Below, piece by piece: positions 311 through 62,106 of a stretch of DNA of 64,000 nt. Location of the stretch: contig JAUWJD010000007.1 of NCBI GenBank assembly GCA_030607875.1, positions 36,756 to 100,755 on the forward strand, read 5' to 3'. The DNA comes from Chloroflexota bacterium. Lineage in GTDB: Bacteria; Chloroflexota; Anaerolineae; UBA2200. The notes under the pieces are model-generated. The model ran no database searches. It saw nothing but the letters and a program-made list of their open reading frames with translations, and was not told the origin of the DNA. A program made the position numbers and the translations under genes. How positions within the stretch are numbered: position 1 is the first letter of the stretch; every line of letters begins with the position of its first letter.

Positions 311-1768
311 TCAGTGGCCTCCGTTGCCTCTGGCAGAAGATCCAGAGACTTGAAACGCATTCTTCAGTGCCTCGCTCATCGCGTGGTGAGCATTCCCATA
401 GAGTTTGTGGCGGTCCAACGCTTGTGGGTGGACAGTGACCTGGGCCATCATCACCTCATTGTCCCAGGCCGCTTGTGGGATCAACCCTGAAGCGAGGCCA
501 TCCGCGATGGCTCGGCCCACAGCAGCTTGCGTTGGCCCATAGATCATGTTTGCCTGTCGCAGGTTCCTGAGTTCGACGACTGGAACGATGAGCGTGGCAG
601 GGCGGACTGTGAGGTTGGGCTCCAGGATGGTGGTCAGGGCCTCGCGGCCGTGGCGCGGGTAAGTGAGTTGCAGCGCATACGCTTCACCAATAGGACCGTC
701 CTTGGGGCCCGCTACCAGGTCAATCTGCACCCTCTCCACATCCTCCCCAGCGACCGCCGTGCCCAGCCGGGCAGCAATCGGCTGCAGCACTTTTGCAGGC
801 AGACCCAGTGCGGCGAATCGATCCACTAAGGGCGCTTGCGGCGCCTCGGGTTCAACTGCCCTGGGGGTGATCTTGCCCAGTTTTTCCAGCTCCAGCCGTA
901 TCTCTGCCCGCACCTCATTGATCAACACTCCGCCTTGCCTGCGCAAGGGCCGCCGAGGCCTGCCGACCTTGACGCCCATCATGTTCAGAGCTGCTTTGAC
1001 CGCCACCCCGCCCCCGTGTCGGCAGAAAATGCGTGCCAGTTTCTGCACGCTGAACTGTAGTTCGCGGGCAGTGTCCAGATCGCCCTGTTGAACGGCAGAG
1101 TACACTTGCTGCCAGACCTCGGGAAAAACCTGAGCGCTAGCCAGAATCATGCCGCTGCAGCCACCCGCCAGGGCTGGCAGAACGACTTCGTCGTGACCGA
1201 TGAGCACGTTGAAGCGCCCTTTGGTCATCTCCAGCACTTCCATCGTATAGGTCAGATTCCCGGAGGAGTCCTTCAAAGCGATGATGTTGGGGATGTCTGC
1301 CAGGTCCTCGACGACGGTGCGGGGCAGGTAGGCGTCAACTACCTGGGGGATGTTGTACAGGACGATGGGAATGTCAACCGCGCTCGCCACTTCGTAGAAG
1401 TGCTGGTAAATGCCCTTGTCAGACGGGTGCAGGAAGTACGGTGTGACGACCAGACAGGCACTGGCCCCTGCGGCTTGGGCGGCACGTGCCAGTTGCACAG
1501 CTTGCCTGGTGGAAGGGGCGCCGGCACCGGCAACGACGGGAACTCGGCCCGCCACTTCGTCCACAACGATTTCAATGACCTGTTTCTGTTCGTCTGGAGT
1601 GAGGTAGATGAATTCGCCCGTTGTTCCGCAGGGCACAACTCCATCCACGTGTGGCAAGACGTGCCGTACTAATGCACGGAGGGCGGTTTCGTCTACCGCT
1701 TCATCCCTGATGAAGGGAGTCACTAATGCTGGAAGCACGCCGCGTGGTTGGAAAGTCGGATTCTTCAC
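311..1768 (-). CDS. Fusion protein: DHDPS/NAL-family pyruvate-type class I aldolase (about aa 1-295) plus a formaldehyde-activating enzyme (Fae)-like domain (about aa 325-485)
   Basis: The N-terminal part has GTTGE, LYNIP and the Schiff-base-lysine context IALKDSSG. The C-terminal part reads [13 protein letters not shown]...[21 protein letters not shown]...[27 protein letters not shown]...VTVHP. It aligns motif-for-motif with Methylobacterium Fae (HIDLIIGPRGSP...LLAVIAPNL.CKPNTL...FGPAQHGVAMAV.DAVAEGIIP...VFIH). Confidence 0.8.
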
Positions 1769-23509: not shown

Positions 23510-24043
23510 CTATGCCTTGCGGTCGAAATAGATGTTCTTGCCGCTTGCGGACAGGGGAATGCCCATCACGTAATCGGCATCGATGAGGCCCATTTCGCGC
23601 GCCACCACACCTGCGCGGTACAAGATGCGGTTATCCACGTTCAGCATGCTGGCCGTCTTGACCGCAGAGCCCAGGGCAATGCCCATGTCCAGCAAGCGGA
23701 AAGCGCACTGTGGGCCCTGGAACTCGCCATCGAAGGTATTGGGCTTGATGCATTTCTCTGCACCGCAAGCGCTGCAGTTGAGGCCCACCGCCTTGGCGTC
23801 CTTGATGCCGATGAGCACCACGACGGGAGAAGCGATCACGTTCTTCCCATCCCGGTCAAAGTTGCGCTTGCCCGTTCGTTCGCCAAAGCGAATCATCGCC
23901 TCGCCCAGTTCTCGGCAAGCCTCGCCGGCAACGATCTCCGTCACCACAAAATCCCGGCCTGCCGATTTGGGTGCCGTTCGTGCCGCGATGCACATCAATT
24001 CAGCCACAGTACGCAAAACGTTAGACATTTTCAAACCTCCCAA
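23510..24043 (-). CDS. DUF2148-like ferredoxin-domain protein
   Basis: 177 aa: CIAARTAPKSAGRDFV...VVVLIGIKDAKAVGLNCSACGAEKC. The pattern matches my memory of DUF2148. It lies 27 nt downstream of the topoisomerase gene on the same strand. Confidence 0.65.
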   Translation of the reverse strand: MGGLKMSNVLRTVAELMCIAARTAPKSAGRDFVVTEIVAGEACRELGEAMIRFGERTGKRNFDRDGKNVIASPVVVLIGIKDAKAVGLNCSACGAEKCIKPNTFDGEFQGPQCAFRLLDMGIALGSAVKTASMLNVDNRILYRAGVVAREMGLIDADYVMGIPLSASGKNIYFDRKA

Positions 24044-24070: not shown

Positions 24071-25969
24071 CTATTCTTCTTCGTGTCTTTCCGTTCGCCC
24101 TCGCGTAGCATCTTGGTCGCTCACGACCAACGGCGCTATGACGGGGGTGTCTTTGTGTTGTATCGCCTCCAGGATGGTTGGCTGGCCCTTTGGGTCTGAT
24201 TCGTCGGCTTGCCTGACCCAGGAGAATTTGCGCCGCAAGGTTTTGGGGTAGTACTTTTCCAACACATCGTACTCGACGCGCTGTCCCCACTGGTGCACCA
24301 CGCGCGGATCGATGTACGACTTTAGGCTGGTGGCCAGGTTCCAATCGCGCTTGATCCGGGTCACCCGCCACCGCGCCTTTAGTTTGCCCAGCGAGAGCGC
24401 TGCCCTTCCTAGCCTCTCTTGCGCGGTTGTGATCCTGCGCTCGGCGCGTGCGATCTTCCGCTGATACGAGGCCTGTTTCCTCTCCCGCTGCTTGGGCGTC
24501 TTGCAGGCGGCAATTTTCTCGCCTGCCTCTGTGCGCAGTGCGTGGAGCGCCCCTTTGTATTCCTTAACCTGCGTGCGGTACTTCTGTACCCGCTCCTCCG
24601 CCCTGTGCTTACGCTGATTGTATCTTTCGCGTCTGACCGGCCAGTTGGCAGTGGATTTCTTGGTGTGGTTGCAAAACGTGGCCGCCTCCAGGTTGGCCAT
24701 GTTCACCGCCTGCCACTTCTCGTATTCCAGATCGCTGGACTGGATGTCTGCATCGGCCAGGCTTTCCCGCACCAACTGCGTGGCGTGATGGGTGCGGAAC
24801 ACCTTGGCCGTCAGACCGGGCAGCAGCTCCGAAAGGAAAGCATTGACGTCCTGGCTGTCAATGTCGGGAAAGATCTGCGGTTTGTCACGGGTGGGATGGC
24901 GCTTGCGATTGTTCCGGTTTCCATTGGCGGGCGGTCGAGCGTTGTCGATCAGTTCCTCCAGGTTGCGGTATACTGCCTCTGGCAGTGCCACCTTCTTGTG
25001 CCACCGTATCGAGTCCTTGCCCAGGAAGCGCAACTCGGCCACACCATCGGAGTGCAGCTTGAGATGCTCAGGACGCAGCGTGGTCGCGCCTATGGTGTCG
25101 GCTTCGTCGGGGTCCTTTTCGTCGCCCACGCGCAGGCCCAGCACGTCGATCAAGTAGCAGGCCGTGGCGATCATTCTGCGCTTGGGATCCGGGTGCGACA
25201 ACTGCACCTGGATGCGCGTGCGGACTGGCTCCAACTGGTGGTGCAGTTCAATAGCCTGGTCGAATTTCTCCGCTTCCCGGGCCTGCTTGATGGGAGCGGT
25301 GTCGCTCAACCAGACGTACTTCATCTTGTTGGACAGCTTGTCCTTCCAGCGCGCCACCCACAAGCTGCCCGGCTGCCACACAATCTCCTGCCACTCACCC
25401 GCAGGCCGTGGGGCGTCCGGGCTCAGGTTCAGCGTGACGTCGCTCTGCTGCGCGCCTTCCTTCCAGCGACCCCGAAGGGGATGCCTGCCCCGCCCCATGA
25501 AGATGCCGCTGGGCTCCACCAGGTAGGTGCCCAGTTCGGTGCGCTCACCGTTGACAATGGCGTGGCCGTATTGTTCCTTCAGCGCCTCGCGCTTTGCCTT
25601 GCGCTCCGCGGCGCGCGCCTTGCGCTCCTCCTTGGTCAGGCTGGCCTTGGCTTGACGTTCGGCCTCCACCACCTGGATGGCAGGCGTAAAATCCACCTCG
25701 TCGATGGACAGCGGTGGTTCAAGACCTAACGCAGCGCTGAAATCCTGCAAAAAGTTGCGCACAAAGACGCTGTCTTCGACGTAGGGCGTGCCCTGCTTCT
25801 TGGCCCAGGCCAGGGCCATCTCCTCCTGCTTGGGCATGAGCGGCACCGGCTCCCTCCGCACCGCGAGCACCAGGCTACGTGGCTCCGGTGGAGGCGGGAT
25901 CAGCACGCCGTTGTGGATCAGTTGGGTTAGCAGAGTCGGTTCGTTGTTGTAGTTGTTCTCGGATGCCAT
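24071..25969 (-). CDS. DNA topoisomerase IB, long eukaryote-like form
   Basis: The start is set at MASENNYNNEPTLLTQLIHNGVLIPPPPEP (25969). It aligns along its length with human TOP1 core and C-terminal motifs: VEPSGIFMGRGRHP (EPPGLFRGRGNHP), ADTIGATTLRPEH (ADTVGCCSLRVEH), FLGKDSIRW (FLGKDSIRY), LTAKVFRTHHA (LTAKVFRTYNA), FCNHTK (LCNHQR) and SLKSYIDPRV (SKLNYLDPRI, catalytic Tyr). Confidence 0.9.
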   Translation of the reverse strand: MASENNYNNEPTLLTQLIHNGVLIPPPPEPRSLVLAVRREPVPLMPKQEEMALAWAKKQGTPYVEDSVFVRNFLQDFSAALGLEPPLSIDEVDFTPAIQVVEAERQAKASLTKEERKARAAERKAKREALKEQYGHAIVNGERTELGTYLVEPSGIFMGRGRHPLRGRWKEGAQQSDVTLNLSPDAPRPAGEWQEIVWQPGSLWVARWKDKLSNKMKYVWLSDTAPIKQAREAEKFDQAIELHHQLEPVRTRIQVQLSHPDPKRRMIATACYLIDVLGLRVGDEKDPDEADTIGATTLRPEHLKLHSDGVAELRFLGKDSIRWHKKVALPEAVYRNLEELIDNARPPANGNRNNRKRHPTRDKPQIFPDIDSQDVNAFLSELLPGLTAKVFRTHHATQLVRESLADADIQSSDLEYEKWQAVNMANLEAATFCNHTKKSTANWPVRRERYNQRKHRAEERVQKYRTQVKEYKGALHALRTEAGEKIAACKTPKQRERKQASYQRKIARAERRITTAQERLGRAALSLGKLKARWRVTRIKRDWNLATSLKSYIDPRVVHQWGQRVEYDVLEKYYPKTLRRKFSWVRQADESDPKGQPTILEAIQHKDTPVIAPLVVSDQDATRGRTERHEEE

Positions 25970-25979
25970 ACAAACGCAG

Positions 25980-26007
25980 ATTATAACAGTGAATCTGTAT
26001 GCGACAA
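25980..26007 (-). promoter_or_regulatory. Putative topoisomerase IB promoter; the transcript would be nearly leaderless
   Basis: The reverse strand reads TTGTCG, 16 nt ending in TGT, TATAAT. Only 10 nt separate the -10 hexamer from the ATG at 25969. Confidence 0.45.
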
Positions 26008-26017
26008 AAACACGCGA

Positions 26018-26046
26018 TTGACATTTGCGGTTATGTTGGATATACT
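26018..26046 (+). promoter_or_regulatory. Promoter of the MNT/HEPN pair
   Basis: TTGACA, 17 nt, TATACT, then GGTGAAGAG and the ATG at 26056. Confidence 0.6.
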
Positions 26047-26055
26047 GGTGAAGAG

Positions 26056-26451
26056 ATGAAAACTTGGAGAAGCATTCTAGAGCGAAAAGTGCAAAGGCAA
26101 CAGGCGCTGGAGCGGACTCTTCCCCGCGTCGTCCAGCAATTGAAAGCCCTGGGTGCACTCAAAGTGATCCTCTTTGGTTCTTTTGCCCGGGGTGACACAG
26201 GCCGGTGGAGTGACCTGGATATTATTGCGGTCATGCCCCGTTCCCTGAGCAGCCACGAATGGACAAGAAGGATCTACGCCGAGGTTGACAGAGGCATCGC
26301 CTGTGACATCCTGGCCTACAATGAAACAGATTTGCAGGAGATGCTTTCGACAAGCCGTTTCGTGCGTCGCGCTTTGAAGGAAGGGAAGGTACTCTATGAA
26401 GCGGGAAACACTTCAAGAGGCGCAGCGTTGGCTGATCCACGCCAGGGATGA
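26056..26451 (+). CDS. Nucleotidyltransferase (MNT-type) protein, putative antitoxin partner of HEPN
   Basis: LFGSFARGDTGRWSDLDIIAV is the GSxxRG...SD.D pol-beta-type NTase motif. The start is moved to the ATG at 26056, downstream of the promoter. Confidence 0.8.
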   Translation: MKTWRSILERKVQRQQALERTLPRVVQQLKALGALKVILFGSFARGDTGRWSDLDIIAVMPRSLSSHEWTRRIYAEVDRGIACDILAYNETDLQEMLSTSRFVRRALKEGKVLYEAGNTSRGAALADPRQG

Positions 26452-26812
26452 GTTCCAGGACGCCGACGAGCTGAGGCTCCGTGGGCGGTTCTACCTGGCT
26501 CTCTTCCACTTCCAGCAGGCAACGGAAAAGGCGCTCAAGGCCTTTCTCTACAGCGTCGCTGGCTCTGAGGAGATTTTCTTCACCCACTCGGTATACGAAC
26601 TGATGCAGTGGGCGAAGGAGGCTGCCCCGGAGTTTGAGCAGGTGCAGAAAGCGGTGAAGCTGGACCAGTACTACATCGCTACACGGTATCCCAACAGCTT
26701 GCCCGGAGGTGTGCCGTCCCGTTTCTACACCGATCCCGAGGAAGCGCAGGAGGCCATGGAACTGGCCCAGGCGGTGCTGGAGATGGTCGAGGGCCTGCTG
26801 AGTGAGCGATAG
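26396..26812 (+). CDS. HEPN domain protein
   Basis: 138 aa: AQRWLIHARDEFQDADEL...ALFHFQQATEKALKAFL...YIATRYPN. It overlaps the MNT gene by 56 nt. Confidence 0.8.
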   Translation: MKRETLQEAQRWLIHARDEFQDADELRLRGRFYLALFHFQQATEKALKAFLYSVAGSEEIFFTHSVYELMQWAKEAAPEFEQVQKAVKLDQYYIATRYPNSLPGGVPSRFYTDPEEAQEAMELAQAVLEMVEGLLSER

Positions 26813-26925
26813 GGATGACTGTGCTGGAGAGCCTGAAGAATCATGTGGAGATGCGTCGCACCTCAATGGCTTGAATGCAGCCCCTCGGCGCGGGGCGAAT
26901 GGCGCTTGACGGGGTGTTGTGCGCC

Positions 26926-27190
26926 TCACAACAGCGTCAGGATCTCCGGCTCGCCATCGGTCACAGCGATGGTGTGCTCAAAGTGGGCGCAGAAGCTGTG
27001 GTCTTTGGTGGCCACCGTCCAGGCGTGACGTACGCCTGCGGCTGCCCGACAGTGAGCATTGCCCCCAGGACATGGGACATGCCCGCAGGAGACTGGGTGC
27101 CATGCCACGCCCAACCCAGTGAGCCGATGGTGCTCATCGCCGCGGTGCAGCGCCAGGCAGGGTAACGCGCGGAAATGTGACGGCCCGCTG
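26926..27190 (-). pseudogene. Decayed 3' fragment of a methionine aminopeptidase gene
   Basis: One frame gives [33 protein letters not shown] (compare Map [33 protein letters not shown]). A second frame gives [27 protein letters not shown] (compare GHGIHLRAGMTYALEPMIMIGQPEVYV). There is no 5' part. Confidence 0.8.
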
Positions 27191-27249
27191 CAGGGCCAGC
27201 GCTGTAGCGTCCATTGGATTCATATGTGATCCGCACAAGAGGTAGTAGT

Positions 27250-29352
27250 ATGGATCTAGGGAAGTTGGTCGCCGGACTGGCTGTGGTTATCGGAATCATG
27301 GCCGGCATTGTGCAGGTGCTGGATTATTTGCAGAAGCAGCGGGAGAAAAAGCGCGGGGCGATAACCAGCAAGGTTATCGCCCCGCCTCCACACTCGTCAG
27401 CGATGCCCAGTAACCTGCCGCCACGAAGCGAGTTCATCGGACGGGAGAGGGAGAAAGCCTTGGTGCGGGAGGCGCTGGCCTCTCGCTATCCCATAACCTG
27501 CATTGACGGCATCGGCGGCATTGGCAAGACGGCGCTGGCTCTAGAAGTGGCCAATGAGTGCTTGCAGGCCAGCAAAGGCGAAATGCCCGCTGACGGCATC
27601 CCCACGTTCGACGGCTTCATCTGGACCACGGCCAAGGACCGCGAGTTGACCCTGAATGACGTGTTGGATGCCATCGCTCGCACCCTGGACTACCTCGGCA
27701 TCGCCCAACAGCCGCTAGAGGAGAAGCAGGAGTCGGTGCGCAGGCTGCTGCAAAGCAAGCGGTGTCTGGTCATCGTGGACAACTTCGAGACAGTGAAGGA
27801 CTCCGCTGTGCGGGACTTCCTACTGCGGCTGCCGGAGCCATCCAAAGTGCTGATCACCAGCCGAGAGCAGAAGCTGCGCCAGGCCTGGGCCGTGTCGCTC
27901 AAGGGGCTGGAACCACCAGAAGCCTTGACCCTCATCCGCAGTGAAGGCCGACGACTGGGCCTAGCCTCAATGGAGAAGGCCGAAGAGCGGGTGCTGTTGC
28001 GCCTCTACAAAGCCACCGGCGGGGCTCCACTGGCCATCAAGTGGGCTGTGGGGCAAATCAAACAGAAGGGCCAAACACTGGACAGGGTGCTAGCGGCCCT
28101 GTACGGGGCCAAGGGCGACATCTTCGAGGAAGTTTTCGCTCGCTCTTGGTCGCTGCTGACCGACGACGCGCGGCGCATCCTGATGGTCATGCCCATCTTC
28201 GTCGCTTCGGCGTCTCGGGATGCCATAGAAGCCGCTAGTGACGTACACCACTACGGCTTGGACGAGGGGCTGGGGCAGTTAGTGGAGATGTGGCTGGTGG
28301 AAGCTACCGATGAACTGGACGTGGCCAAGCGACGGTATAGCATTCACCCGCTGACGAGGGCGTATGCTGGGGCCAAGTTGAGGGAGAATGCGGACTGGGA
28401 GAGAGAAGCAAGACTGCGAGCTGCTGATTACTTCGTTCATCTCACGGAGAGGCATGGCTGGCGGTGGGATACACAAGGGATTACCATGTTCGATGTGCAA
28501 CGACTCGAACCCGAGCGAGAGAATGTGCTCGCCATAATGGACTGGTGTTACGAGACAGGCGAATGGCAAATCTTACTCTCCCTGGCCTTGGGAATGAGCG
28601 GGTTCTTAGGTTTGTGTGGCTATTGGCAAGAACGTCTGATCTATGGACAGCGAGGTGCCGAGGCGGCGGAGCACATAGGAGACGATAGGTCGTTGGCTTG
28701 GCTAAGCATGTTGATGGCCTGGGTGTACCTTAACCGCGGTAGTCACGGACAGGCGAGGTCGCTGATGAAAGAGAGCCAGGTGATCTTCGAGAGAATTGGA
28801 GCTTGGGAAGGCACTTGCGTGGCGCTCAGGTATTTGGGGAGGATCGCGCGTGAGACAGGCGCATTTGAGGAAGCAAAACAACTAGGTGAAAAAGCGCTCG
28901 AGATTGCTCGAGTGCAAAATCATAGGAATTATGCGAGCGACCTTTATCGGGATTTCGGAACACTTGCATTGGAGCAAGGACAATATGCAGAGGCCCAGCA
29001 GTGGTGCCAAAAGGCACTCGACGAAATAGAAAAACCTGGAAACGAAGAGAGATTGGGCAATATCCTCATTGGCCTTGCTAGCGCAAAGCTCATGCGGGGC
29101 GAGATCAATGACGCAGGGCGGCTGTTCGAAACGGCATTGGAACTCGTTCAGATGTTTGGTAGACAAGACAATATCGCTCATGCTAAGCACGGTTTGGCAA
29201 AAGTCAACAGCGAAAAGGGCGATCTTGGAGAAGCGCTGAAACTGGCGCGAGAGGCTCTGGGAACCTACGTGCGGCTGGAGATGCGGCAAGAGGCTAATGA
29301 GACGAAGCTGCTGGTGAGGAGGCTAGAGAAGAAGCTGTCGGTGGATAGATAA
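27250..29352 (+). CDS. STAND NTPase: N-terminal TM helix + NB-ARC + C-terminal TPR repeats (NLR-like)
   Basis: LVAGLAVVIGIMAGIVQVL (TM), GIGGIGKTALA (Walker A), CLVIVDNFE (Walker B), VLITSR, GGAPLAI and IHPLTR (MHD position), then TPR-like repeats to the C-terminus. The ATG at 27250 has GAGG 8 nt upstream. The ORF could also start at 27214. Confidence 0.85.
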   Translation: MDLGKLVAGLAVVIGIMAGIVQVLDYLQKQREKKRGAITSKVIAPPPHSSAMPSNLPPRSEFIGREREKALVREALASRYPITCIDGIGGIGKTALALEVANECLQASKGEMPADGIPTFDGFIWTTAKDRELTLNDVLDAIARTLDYLGIAQQPLEEKQESVRRLLQSKRCLVIVDNFETVKDSAVRDFLLRLPEPSKVLITSREQKLRQAWAVSLKGLEPPEALTLIRSEGRRLGLASMEKAEERVLLRLYKATGGAPLAIKWAVGQIKQKGQTLDRVLAALYGAKGDIFEEVFARSWSLLTDDARRILMVMPIFVASASRDAIEAASDVHHYGLDEGLGQLVEMWLVEATDELDVAKRRYSIHPLTRAYAGAKLRENADWEREARLRAADYFVHLTERHGWRWDTQGITMFDVQRLEPERENVLAIMDWCYETGEWQILLSLALGMSGFLGLCGYWQERLIYGQRGAEAAEHIGDDRSLAWLSMLMAWVYLNRGSHGQARSLMKESQVIFERIGAWEGTCVALRYLGRIARETGAFEEAKQLGEKALEIARVQNHRNYASDLYRDFGTLALEQGQYAEAQQWCQKALDEIEKPGNEERLGNILIGLASAKLMRGEINDAGRLFETALELVQMFGRQDNIAHAKHGLAKVNSEKGDLGEALKLAREALGTYVRLEMRQEANETKLLVRRLEKKLSVDR

Positions 29353-29537
29353 CGGAGAAGTGAGTTACAAATGAATTACCTATTACTTACCCAACCAGTT
29401 CTGCTCCACCATCACGTCGTCCGGCAGGGTGCAGCTGTGCATCGGCGACTGGACTAGGAGAGTTGGCAACACAGCCGGTCGCGAGAAATTCGTGTAATCC
29501 GCCGTTCGCCCCGCTCGACGGGGTGTCGTGCTCGTGC

Positions 29538-30317
29538 TTACGACAGCGTCAGGATCTCAGGCTCGCCATCGCTCACCGCGATGGTGTGCTCAAAGTGGGC
29601 GCAGAGGCTGTGATCCTTGGTGGTCACCGTCCAGGTGTCGCGCTTGACGTACACTTCCGGTTGCCCGATCATGATCATCGGCTCCAGCGCATAGGTCATG
29701 CCCGCGCGCAGATGGATGCCATGCCCACGCTTGCCCCAATTGGGTATCTGCGGGTCTTCGTGCATCTCCCGTCCCACGCCATGGCCAGTATACTCGCGCA
29801 CCACGTTGTAGCCGTGGCGCTCGGCGTGTGCCTGGATGGCGGCAGACACGTCCCCCAGTCGATTGCCCACGCGCGAGGCCTCGATGGCCTTGTACAGCGC
29901 CTCCTCGGTGACACGCAGCAAACGCTCCGCCTGCTCGGAGATGTGGCCCACACCGATGGTGAAAGCAGCGTCGCCGACAAAGCCCTGGTAGATGCAGCCA
30001 CAATCCAGGCTGATGATATCGCCTTCCACCAACACACGACGGCGGCTGGGGATGCCATGCACCAACTCATCGTTGACGCTGGCGGTGATGGTGGCTGGGT
30101 AGGGGCGAGCGGAACGCCGGGGGCTGGGGTTGGGGTAGCCCAAGAAGGCAGGGACGGCACCGTGCGAACGGAGCACGTCCTCAGCGATGGAGTCCAGTTC
30201 AGCGGTGGTTACGCCGGGGTGCACAGCGCGGCGCATGGCCTCCAGGGCCAGGGCGTTGATGCGTCCTGCCTCACGCAGCAGAGCGATTTCTTCGCGTGTC
30301 TTGATGATGATGGCCAC
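29538..30317 (-). CDS. map: Methionine aminopeptidase, type I
   Basis: 259 aa: MAIIIKTREEIALLREAGRI..., the metal-ligand contexts DIISLDCG, GHGVG and EPMI, and a C-terminal HFEHT. Confidence 0.95.
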   Translation of the reverse strand: MAIIIKTREEIALLREAGRINALALEAMRRAVHPGVTTAELDSIAEDVLRSHGAVPAFLGYPNPSPRRSARPYPATITASVNDELVHGIPSRRRVLVEGDIISLDCGCIYQGFVGDAAFTIGVGHISEQAERLLRVTEEALYKAIEASRVGNRLGDVSAAIQAHAERHGYNVVREYTGHGVGREMHEDPQIPNWGKRGHGIHLRAGMTYALEPMIMIGQPEVYVKRDTWTVTTKDHSLCAHFEHTIAVSDGEPEILTLS

Positions 30318-60810: not shown

Positions 60811-62106
60811 GTGTTGGTGTGAGAGAGGTGTGTTCTGCAGAGCTGCTTGCTTGTGCCAGGGGGTGCCGAGGCAGCCTGAGCAGGCTTGTGTACATTCAGA
60901 CGCACAAGGCATCCAAGTAACTGATTTCTCCTGGTGGGACTCCGGCCATGGTCAGGGGGCTCTGGCCTGGTCGGCGGTAGTGACGTTTGCGTTCAGACCT
61001 CCATTGAGCGGGTTCAAAGTTGTGATAGATGGCCCACAGCAAGGATGCACGCTCCAGCCGCTCTTGAGAAGCGTGATTCCGTCCACGGCTCAGTCGCAGA
61101 CGGTAATCTCGCCAACACCATTCCGGTGCCACTCGTACCAAGCGGCGGTTGTGGGGCAACAAATGGATCAGCGCCGCGTTCATTTGCTCACCAACGGTGC
61201 GCCATAGGTCCTGTCCAAAGGGATTGGCTCGCCAGGCCACGCCACAGGTGCCACACGCATCGCTGATGGTTGACCCAGTGCAACTGGTAGCGCAGGTAGG
61301 CCATCAAGCCATGACAGCCATCGCTGGTCACCCCTCGCATGGCCTGCAGTGGCAGCCCCGCTTGTCTGGCCCGCTCGAACAACTGTGCCCACGGCTCCTC
61401 ACTCTCTTCTCCTGCTGCTACCACTGGGGGCCAGATCACTCCACTCACACTGTCCACTACCAGCAACACCACCCGTTTGGCCCCCCCACGCAGTCGAGCC
61501 CACATTCCGTCGGTACCCAGTTGCCGGGAGATGGGAACAGCCTCCAGTTGCCCCGCTACACTTTGCTGTGCCTTTCGTCCTGCTTTGTCCAACCAACGAT
61601 GCACCGTGCTGGCGCTCAGATGGCACACAACCCGCCGCTCTAACTCTTCCCATGACCGCCACATTTGCCAGCGCTCCCGATGCCCCATGCACGAGCGTAG
61701 CCATTCCGCTGTCCGACGCAATGAGCTGCCTACGTGCTGCCAGTGGTCGATGGCCTGACGATGCACTCCCCGGGCATACCAACTGCCCCGCACCAGAAAG
61801 CGACATTGCTCCGAGTACGTACGCTTGCAGTTGTAACAATAGTGCCTTTGCACCCGTATCTCTCGCTGTCCCTCCAAAAACCACACCCGCCGCTGATAGA
61901 AGCCATACTTGCACGTCTGCCGGTGACCACACTGTGGGCAGCGTTGCCAATCCCACGCTGTCCGCTCCCCAAGTTCGCGCAGCCATTGGACAAATCGCTT
62001 GCCTTGCTCTATGATGTTCATGGGCTGTTCTATCTCCTTGTTCTCTCCAACGGCAAGATGATAGCACAGCCCTCTCTCTTCCCCTAGCTGCAAACATCAC
62101 CAACAC
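60811..62106 (-). mobile_element. IS-like element (approximate ends) carrying a split DDE transposase
   Basis: Imperfect inverted termini: GTGTTGGTG...GGTGTGTTCTGCAG at 60811-60840, and CTGCAAACATCACCAACAC at 62088-62106. The element's boundaries are tentative. Confidence 0.45.
60896..62093 (-). pseudogene. Transposase in two overlapping frames (N-terminal Zn-finger + DDE core, IS256/Mutator-like motif order)
   Basis: ORF 61188..62093 reads CPQCGH...YCYNCKRTY, LGTDGMW, VVLLVVDSVSG, ESEEPWAQLF, GVTSDGCHGL, HQRCVWHLWRGL. ORF 60896..61240 continues (FGQDLWR...LLWAIYHNFEPAQW...GQSPLTMAG) in a frame offset by +1/-2. Confidence 0.6.

Follow-up and report, generated by a model that had tools for sequence, protein, structure and literature searches.

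A long-form type IB topoisomerase in an Anaerolineae genome, a member of a large bacterial clade of probable ancient archaeal descent

The window analyzed here, a stretch of 64,000 nucleotides from a Chloroflexota bacterium (assembly GCA_030607875.1, contig JAUWJD010000007.1, positions 36,756 to 100,755 of the forward strand), carries on its minus strand a gene for a type IB topoisomerase (TopIB). The gene borders a divergent MNT/HEPN pair and is followed by a DUF2148 gene; the coordinates of all features are collected in Table 1. An earlier note, made from the sequence alone, had described the gene product as a eukaryote/Thaumarchaeota-style long form of TopIB in a bacterial context, with hardly any leader in front of its start codon. 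All motifs quoted there, NGVLIPPPPEP, VEPSGIFMGRGRHP, TLRPEH, LGKDSIRW, KVFRTHH, CNHTK and SLKSYIDPR, are present in the translation. Of the span 24071-26007 given there, positions 25970..26007 constitute the predicted promoter, and the 632-aa product starts at ATG 25969. The longest minus-strand open reading frame (ORF) at the locus (24071..26158) starts with a GTG and comprises 695 aa. We rejected this start and took 24071..25969 as the coding sequence, because the 63-codon extension is not conserved and crosses the divergent promoter, because the nearest homologue (P0001, 94% identity) has only 613 aa, and because an independent public gene call on the Logan contig SRR12623517 yields an identical protein of 632 aa. 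Residues 1-20, too, are poorly conserved in an alignment of 124 sequences of the bacterial clade described below, which is in line with this choice.

The long-form assignment was upheld. A search for the Topoisom_I_N (PF02919) and Topoisom_I (PF01028) profiles, proposed in the earlier note with the reservation that a missing N-terminal match would speak against it, gave significant results for both, and all three long-form Pfam domains are present (Table 1). The N-terminal match scored 169.5 bits (cut-off, 25), and the N-terminal yeast fragment 1ois was retrieved with an E-value of 1.8e-29. In a HMMER alignment with human TOP1 (PDB 1rrj), R299, K318, R392, H435 and Y552 are paired with R488, K532, R590, H632 and Y723, confirming the counterparts suggested for the five catalytic positions. 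This pentad, as well as D319 (human D533), is unchanged in all 124 bacterial-clade sequences. The surroundings of the active site show a column conservation of 80-98%, and most of the DNA-contacting motifs are invariant. Sequence searches of the PDB retrieved the apo form of TOP1 from Ca. Caldiarchaeum subterraneum (CsTOP1, 6z01; PMC8748870) with 5.6e-129, the Leishmania enzyme 2b9s with 1.3e-64 and human TOP1 with approximately 1e-62. The short TopIB of D. radiodurans (2f4q) matched with 7e-8 and over aa 261-423 alone, and the poxvirus enzymes with approximately 6e-3. The product does not conform to the short, poxvirus-like form: it has no Pfam match of the virDNA-topo-I_N type, is 632 aa long and contains a linker.

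An AlphaFold2 model built from a 62-sequence alignment reached a mean predicted local distance difference test (pLDDT) score of 88.7 and a predicted template modeling (pTM) score of 0.82. Foldseek searches with this model returned the CsTOP1 structures 6z03/6z01 as the best matches (E ~1e-44), and closed complexes of human TOP1 with DNA aligned at template modeling (TM) scores of 0.67-0.78. The root-mean-square deviation from CsTOP1 is large because the CsTOP1 crystal represents the open form. A clamp fold around duplex DNA is predicted by the model with high confidence. Judged by its sequence, the product is a bona fide long-form (eukaryote/archaeal-type) TopIB that is apparently intact.

Table 1. 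Features of the TopIB locus (window coordinates).
Feature	Coordinates	Strand	Evidence and remarks
TopIB coding sequence (long form), 632 aa	24071..25969	minus	ATG 25969, stop 24071-24073; ORF list, translation, public gene call
Topoisom_I_N (PF02919), cap/core subdomains I-II, aa 16-221	25307..25924	minus	9.9e-50, profile 5-213 of 213
Topoisom_I (PF01028) catalytic core, aa 226-467, with R299, K318, R392, H435	24569..25294	minus	4.6e-57
Antiparallel coiled-coil linker, helices aa 443-488 and 492-540	24350..24643	minus	AlphaFold model, pLDDT >90
Topo_C_assoc (PF14370) C-terminal domain, aa 538-590, with Tyr552 (codon 24314-24316) and Ser551	24200..24358	minus	2e-12
Acidic C-terminal tail, predicted disordered, lineage-specific, aa 591-632 (42 residues)	24074..24199	minus	occupancy 8% in the clade; pLDDT 31-50
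Predicted sigma-70-type promoter of TopIB: -35 TTGTCG 26007-26002, TG 25988-25987, -10 TATAAT 25985-25980	25980..26007	minus	consensus scan, 10/12 plus TG
Predicted divergent MNT promoter (TTGACA, 17 nt, TATACT), 9 nt before ATG 26056	26018..26046	plus	consensus scan, 11/12
MNT	25999/26056..26451	plus	neighbor gene
HEPN	26396..26812	plus	overlaps MNT, as in a typical pair
DUF2148	23510..24043	minus	ORF; likely start ATG 24028 with GGAGG Shine-Dalgarno motif, equal to the public gene call

The bacterial context of the gene was confirmed by the content of the window and by the relatives of its BipA protein. The window encodes ComEC, BipA/TypA, MutS2, a bacterial-type PheT and an Amidase_3 peptidoglycan amidase, together with ValRS, CysRS, enolase, CTP synthase, transaldolase and an Opp-type ABC transporter. 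Rfam and tRNA scans of the 64 kb revealed no rRNA, tRNA or other Rfam match and, given the lack of rRNA, BipA homologues served for host taxonomy. The nearest named relatives of the window BipA, with 79-81% identity, carry the organism names Anaerolineae bacterium or Chloroflexi bacterium. Among the bacteria, we assign the host to the class Anaerolineae (Chloroflexota), and the TopIB gene is chromosomal. As the DNA is of metagenomic origin, and as Cytophagia and Calditrichota labels occur on short binned contigs of the clade, one might suspect an assembly or binning artefact in which an archaeal or eukaryotic fragment became joined to bacterial DNA. We give this explanation practically no credence. 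The same gene with bacterial neighbors is found in SRR12623517, GCA_034430235.1, GCA_964478075.1, GCA_052743695.1, GCA_040960625.1 and several JGI contigs, and some of the independent contigs reach 170-184 kb. Moreover, the GC content and the GC content at third codon positions (GC3) are continuous across the gene junctions; the TopIB values of 0.61 and 0.79, respectively, lie inside the range of the window.

A survey of synteny among relatives, as recommended in the earlier note, showed that the neighborhood M24-TopIB(-YggS-DUF362) recurs. The related locus L070 (78% TopIB identity) has the order Amidase_3 - M24 aminopeptidase - TopIB - YggS - DUF362 - Exo_endo_phos, the downstream part of which is common to L005, L007 and L072. 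The order is Amidase_3 - M24 - TopIB - MutS2 in L078 and PheS - PheT - MutS2 - TopIB in L007. In the window, the genes for M24 and Amidase_3 lie just upstream of TopIB, and those for PheT and MutS2 are 8-12 kb away. Identities to the window proteins were 80% (PheT), 75% (MutS2) and 75% (TopIB) for L007, 84% (M24) and 78% (TopIB) for L070, and 71% (M24), 67% (MutS2) and 64% (TopIB) for L078. Because TopIB has diverged in step with the flanking housekeeping genes and the synteny is conserved, we regard it as a long-resident, vertically inherited gene.

The gene is also far from unique. A word-indexed search yielded at least 120 distinct clusters (90% identity) that are 64-94% identical to the window TopIB; all of them contain the three domains, and their members comprise 573-644 aa apart from one fusion. 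In the metagenome scan, 50 of the best 80 loci were at least 55% identical to it. An exhaustive search among 50%-identity representatives resulted in 599 long-form representatives with E <= 1e-30, a handful of which make up the bacterial clade. The clade is compact, with identities of at least 54%. Named relatives are MBC7244391.1 and NLS79101.1 from Chloroflexota and MGQ9492972.1 from Anaerolineae; one further member is labeled Calditrichota and another one Cytophagia (L001, 54% identity). The fusion (P0108, 972 aa), a bacterial-clade TopIB whose gene call also covers a class V aminotransferase domain (PF00266), is either real or a gene-call merge. A scan of viral contigs detected 59 long-form genes, none of which exceeded 39% identity to the window TopIB, and thus gave no viral source. 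Long forms with 27-39% identity are present in L011-L069 (IMG/VR, mostly giant-virus metagenome-assembled genomes, GVMAG), and L011 (39%) grouped with an archaeal set in the neighbor-joining (NJ) tree.

These results bear on the proposal of the earlier note that the gene is either a horizontal acquisition of its own or a representative of a rare bacterial lineage. Neither alternative is supported by the at least 120 clusters, the conserved synteny and the co-divergence. A recent, private acquisition from an archaeon, a eukaryote or a giant virus may seem attractive, since the family is otherwise known from archaea, eukaryotes and giant viruses and since TopIB adjoins a variable defense insert (MNT/HEPN, an NB-ARC STAND NTPase gene and a 150-nt direct repeat). 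It is, however, very improbable. Neither GC nor GC3 shows an anomaly, the closest sequences (64-94% identity) all reside on bacterial-type contigs, the chromosomal surroundings are conserved and TopIB co-diverges with M24, PheT and MutS2, and the best viral match is distant. Furthermore, the variable insert between M24 and TopIB does not include TopIB, as L070 and L078 possess the gene without the insert. We conclude that the bacterial clade to which the window TopIB belongs is large but has received little discussion, and that the gene is in no way exceptional within it.

For the phylogeny with eukaryotic, archaeal, viral and bacterial TopIB that the note had called for, NJ trees were calculated from Kimura-corrected distances with 100 bootstraps, instead of by maximum likelihood. 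The input consisted of the representatives at 50% identity, archaeal homologues with names that a search with CsTOP1 had retrieved, the sequences of human TOP1 and CsTOP1 as given in the PDB alignments, and the translated fetched loci. The bacterial clade was monophyletic. With 115 taxa and 517 columns it had a bootstrap value of 99 and joined P0128 and P0132 at 98. When 133 taxa and a stricter selection of 479 columns were used, the bootstrap value was 100, and the successive outgroups were P0128/L118/L121 (58), the Heimdallarchaeota-labeled L009/L123/P0132 (92), and a large group with L144 and L010 (65). P0132 and P0401 are proteins from metagenome-assembled genomes (MAGs) named 'Candidatus Heimdallarchaeota archaeon' (four accessions). 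The Thaumarchaeota/Aigarchaeota ('BAT') clade was separate (bootstrap 79), with the window TopIB outside it, and the prokaryotic long forms were split from the eukaryotic ones at a bootstrap value of 96 in the 115-taxon tree. Hence, the description as eukaryote/Thaumarchaeota-style is correct regarding the long form, but the nearest relatives belong to a different archaeal group that includes Heimdallarchaeota-labeled MAG proteins. Among the outgroups, the TopIB gene of L144 (on an 861-kb contig) adjoins a gene for TiaS, which is regarded as an archaeal marker. HMG-CoA reductase and Trm112 are encoded in L010, and a weak S-layer domain match is present in L009. L009 and L123, both labeled Heimdallarchaeota, share the synteny GlmS-NrdD-...-TopIB.

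Two independent characters, the residue preceding the catalytic tyrosine and the length of the linker, agree with the tree. Ser551 occupies the position of human N722, and a serine is found there in 121 of the 124 bacterial-clade sequences. The linker of the window protein spans approximately 98 residues in the AlphaFold model, and the distance between the catalytic histidine and tyrosine (H-to-Y) is 116-117 aa throughout the clade (117 in the window protein). The allied archaeal group (P0128, P0132, P0131) likewise has a serine before the catalytic tyrosine, at an H-to-Y distance of 154-210 aa. An asparagine is found in the named Thaumarchaeota and Aigarchaeota, whose H-to-Y distance amounts to 65-72 aa (up to 157 aa in unnamed members of their clade), and also in the human wild type.

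A transfer from archaea to bacteria is favored because the compact bacterial clade is nested among more diverse, partly archaeal outgroups. The opposite course, in which the long-linker, Ser-type TopIB passed from bacteria (Chloroflexota) to Asgard-type or other archaea, or in which a donor now lost, for instance a virus, supplied both, is unlikely but carries a small, tangible share of the probability. Several observations weigh against our preferred direction and placement, and in part speak for this alternative. The tree is effectively unrooted within the prokaryotes, so that the direction of the transfer is not proven. Its deep nodes around the archaeal backbone are weak (27-65%, in NJ on corrected distances), and the order in which the archaeal sister groups branch is supported at 58-65%. 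For P0128, L118 and L121, which form the immediate sister group, the gene neighbors are uninformative as to the domain of life (L118: TnpB- and DDE-transposase-like), and giant-virus MAGs carry long forms as well. In addition, the 'Heimdallarchaeota' label rests on MAG binning, the contexts of L009 and L010 look archaeal without being decisive, and the Calditrichota and Cytophagia labels rest on the binning of modest contigs. On the other hand, the bacterial clade is recovered as monophyletic at 99-100% and is less diverse than its successive outgroups, at least some of which are archaeal according to TiaS in L144, HMG-CoA reductase in L010 and the Heimdallarchaeota labels of the MAGs. The most economical reading of the trees is a single ancient transfer to bacteria from this non-thaumarchaeal archaeal group.

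Taken together, we estimate a probability of roughly 85% that the window encodes a catalytically competent long-form TopIB of an Anaerolineae bacterium, which is a resident gene of a large clade and was seeded from archaea in ancient times. The bacterial clade would go back to one transfer from an archaeon related to the Heimdallarchaeota-labeled group, and neither to Thaumarchaeota nor to eukaryotes, with mostly vertical inheritance of TopIB thereafter. By analogy to the family, the cap (Topoisom_I_N) and the catalytic core would close as a clamp on duplex DNA. Tyr552 would attack one strand to form a 3'-phosphotyrosyl link, with R299, K318, R392 and H435 stabilizing the transition state. The cut strand could then swivel against the friction exerted by the clamp and the coiled-coil linker, whereby positive and negative supercoils would be relaxed without ATP or Mg2+, and the nick would be resealed after strand rotation.

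The near-leaderless arrangement suggested for the gene is real as a consensus match. The -35 and -10 elements of the predicted promoter are separated by a spacer of 16 nt, and TGnTATAAT is followed by 10 nt without a Shine-Dalgarno (SD) motif and then by ATG 25969. In the 3.1 kb scanned, two promoter-like sites were detected, compared to 0.6 ± 0.8 expected in shuffled sequences. Assuming the usual 7 nt from the -10 hexamer to position +1, consensus matching alone gives a predicted leader of approximately 4 nt (range 2-6 nt). The TG-extended -10 promoter would therefore allow translation in this lineage to start on an essentially leaderless mRNA. TATAAT (or TATACT) followed by 10 nt and ATG recurs in L007/L008 (75% identity), L003/L004 (70%) and L070 (78%). 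In L003/L004, this geometry implies a start that yields 612 aa, not the called start that yields 630 aa. L071 (70% identity) has TAGAAT at a distance of 13 nt. In L005 (7946-7964), TATAAT plus 10 nt precedes an ATC in the reading frame, and the called ATG lies 39 nt further downstream without an SD motif; the ATC site may be a decayed leaderless start. A point against a more general leaderless start is that most clade members with 55-68% identity have GGAG-type SD motifs. The leaderless layout is for this reason considered a trait of the sub-lineage with at least 70% identity and not of the family. Among the ORFs of the window, about 28 of 40 are preceded by SD-like motifs, and four display the leaderless-type geometry. 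Besides TopIB, a TATAAT-like -10 element 7-10 nt before the start and no SD motif were observed for MNT (ATG 26056, plus strand), a GDSL-lipase gene (ATG 11013, minus strand) and a DUF362-Fer4 gene (GTG 48708, plus strand). This pattern suggests that a minority of the transcripts in the host organism may be leaderless.

The divergent MNT/HEPN pair and the downstream DUF2148 gene are present as described in the earlier note. The MNT promoter stands back-to-back with that of TopIB and is an element of MNT, not of TopIB. The 27-nt gap reported between TopIB and DUF2148 was not borne out; it measures 42 nt from the SD-supported ATG 24028. Co-transcription is possible across this distance, as no minus-strand terminator is predicted between the two genes, but DUF2148 follows TopIB in none of approximately 50 related loci, and we therefore rejected a functional TopIB-DUF2148 operon. 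The adjacency to MNT/HEPN is retained solely in the P0019 lineage (L003/L004); 49 of the 50 other loci compared within the bacterial clade lack the pair. The gap between M24 and TopIB harbors MNT/HEPN and the NB-ARC/TPR gene in the window (26056-29352). In L003/L004 (850-7267), it contains genes for PDDEXK_3, a diversity-generating retroelement (bAvd and RVT_1), a NACHT-FGE-sulfatase protein and HEPN/MNT. Because the inserts differ and L070 and L078 are insert-free, the gap is regarded as a variable hotspot of defense genes with TopIB outside it. The assignment of TopIB to an MNT/HEPN/STAND defense cluster was likewise rejected, since the defense genes form an insert between M24 and TopIB. We conclude that MNT/HEPN and DUF2148 are incidental neighbors of TopIB. 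Within the insert of the window, a direct repeat of approximately 150 nt and 90% identity (26903-27049 and 29512-29668) brackets the NB-ARC/TPR STAND NTPase gene (27214-29352, plus strand). The repeat results from a duplication of the 3' end of the gene for the M24 methionine aminopeptidase (29538-30317, minus strand), the copy being a fragment ORF (26926-27114, minus strand). The arrangement resembles that of a cassette which entered at the 3' end of the map gene.

The overlapping back-to-back promoters shared with MNT/HEPN, an arrangement kept in one lineage (L003/L004), also raise the question of whether the protein might be a TopIB homologue that has degenerated or taken on another role, such as that of a DNA-binding factor or a site-specific recombinase tied to MNT/HEPN. 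The unusually long linker and the clade's serine at the N722 position would fit such a change of function. We nevertheless judge it improbable in view of the invariance of the pentad and most of the DNA-contacting motifs across the 124 sequences, the full clamp fold predicted with high confidence, the lack of MNT/HEPN at almost all of the other clade loci compared, and the occurrence of TopIB in genomes without adjacent defense genes. Two observations concern genes elsewhere in the window. One ORF (311-1768, minus strand) encodes both a domain of the DHDPS family and one of the formaldehyde-activating enzyme (Fae) type. Another ORF (61188-62093, minus strand) shows a weak, partial match to a Mutator-family transposase (profile positions 202-263 of 379) and is probably a transposase remnant.

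According to papers from 2008 and 2016 and a structure paper from 2022, bacteria possess the short form alone, and the long form in prokaryotes is limited to Thaumarchaeota and related archaea (PMC2621148, PMC4824112, PMC8748870). The earlier note had reasoned that membership in a large, already well-described bacterial clade would remove the novelty of the gene. The clade is indeed large, and NCBI auto-annotates its proteins as 'DNA topoisomerase I', for example, 'DNA topoisomerase I [Chloroflexota bacterium]'. However, in our search, which did not extend to subscription-only literature, we found no paper describing a long-form TopIB in Chloroflexota or other bacteria, and we provisionally consider the clade undescribed. 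The full proposition, an undescribed bacterial clade that is centered on Anaerolineae/Chloroflexota with other phyla possible, has a eukaryote-type TOP1, and is akin to an archaeal group including Heimdallarchaeota-labeled sequences rather than to Thaumarchaeota, is put forward tentatively, at somewhat less than even odds. Any novelty is a property of the large clade and not of the window locus; it concerns mainly the evolutionary placement, the apparent lack of published descriptions and the length of the linker.

If these assignments are true, TopIB would be neither a clean 'eukaryotic signature protein' (ESP) nor a 'hallmark of Thaumarchaeota', and the clade would record an ancient transfer of a core DNA-topology enzyme from archaea to bacteria, or in reverse. 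The carriers might possess a partly re-engineered supercoil homeostasis, for instance, with less reliance on Topo IA, and the linker of approximately 98 residues would be a natural variant for relating linker length to strand rotation. The clade thus bears on the origin of eukaryotic TOP1, on the reliability of ESP-type markers and on the management of supercoils in bacteria. It also offers easily expressed enzymes for work on mechanism and inhibitors, in which the linker is naturally elongated and a substitution resembling N722S is already present.

Compared with known systems, the short TopIB enzymes (D. radiodurans 2F4Q/3M4A; vaccinia/variola) share a homologous catalytic domain and the same chemistry with the window TopIB. 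Unlike the latter, they comprise approximately 310-350 aa and lack both the Topoisom_I_N cap and the coiled-coil linker. Their sequence similarity extends over aa 261-423 (7e-8 to 7e-3), the Foldseek E-values range from 1e-8 to 6e-7, and the match of 2h7f, like that of 2f4q, is confined to the catalytic region. Human TOP1 (1A36, 1K4T) resembles the window protein in its cap, core, coiled-coil linker, C-terminal domain and pentad. The identity is approximately 27-36%, and the window protein differs from the human enzyme in the absence of the ~200-aa N-terminal domain, the H-to-Y distance (117 vs. 91 aa), the serine at N722 and M158 at the position of human R362. CsTOP1 (6Z01/6Z03; PMC4824112, PMC8748870) is similar in its three-domain architecture without the eukaryotic N-terminal charged extension, in approximately 47% identity over the alignment and in identical catalytic residues. 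Supercoils of both signs are relaxed by CsTOP1 (PMC4824112). In contrast to CsTOP1, the window TopIB resides in a bacterial host, belongs to a separate clade, has an additional disordered acidic tail, and shows an H-to-Y distance of 117 instead of 67 aa as well as a serine instead of an asparagine at position 722. Its linker of approximately 98 residues compares with 53 residues in CsTOP1 and 76-77 in the human enzyme (PMC4824112). N722S is the mutant in PDB entry 1RRJ, the title of which concerns camptothecin-resistance mutations, and CsTOP1, with its asparagine, is camptothecin-resistant (PMC4824112). By analogy to both, we predict that the window TopIB, with Ser551, would be resistant to camptothecin.

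Among the Asgard archaea, TopIB has been reported from Gerd-, Thor-, Balder- and Hermodarchaeota and counted as a eukaryotic signature protein (10.1101/858530, 10.1101/2021.04.02.438162). The Heimdallarchaeota-labeled proteins P0132 and P0401 belong to the outgroups closest to the bacterial clade (bootstrap 92-98 for the grouping) and share with it the serine and the expanded linker. They differ from the window TopIB in their identity of approximately 41-44%, their H-to-Y distance of 154-210 aa and their archaeal-looking neighborhoods.

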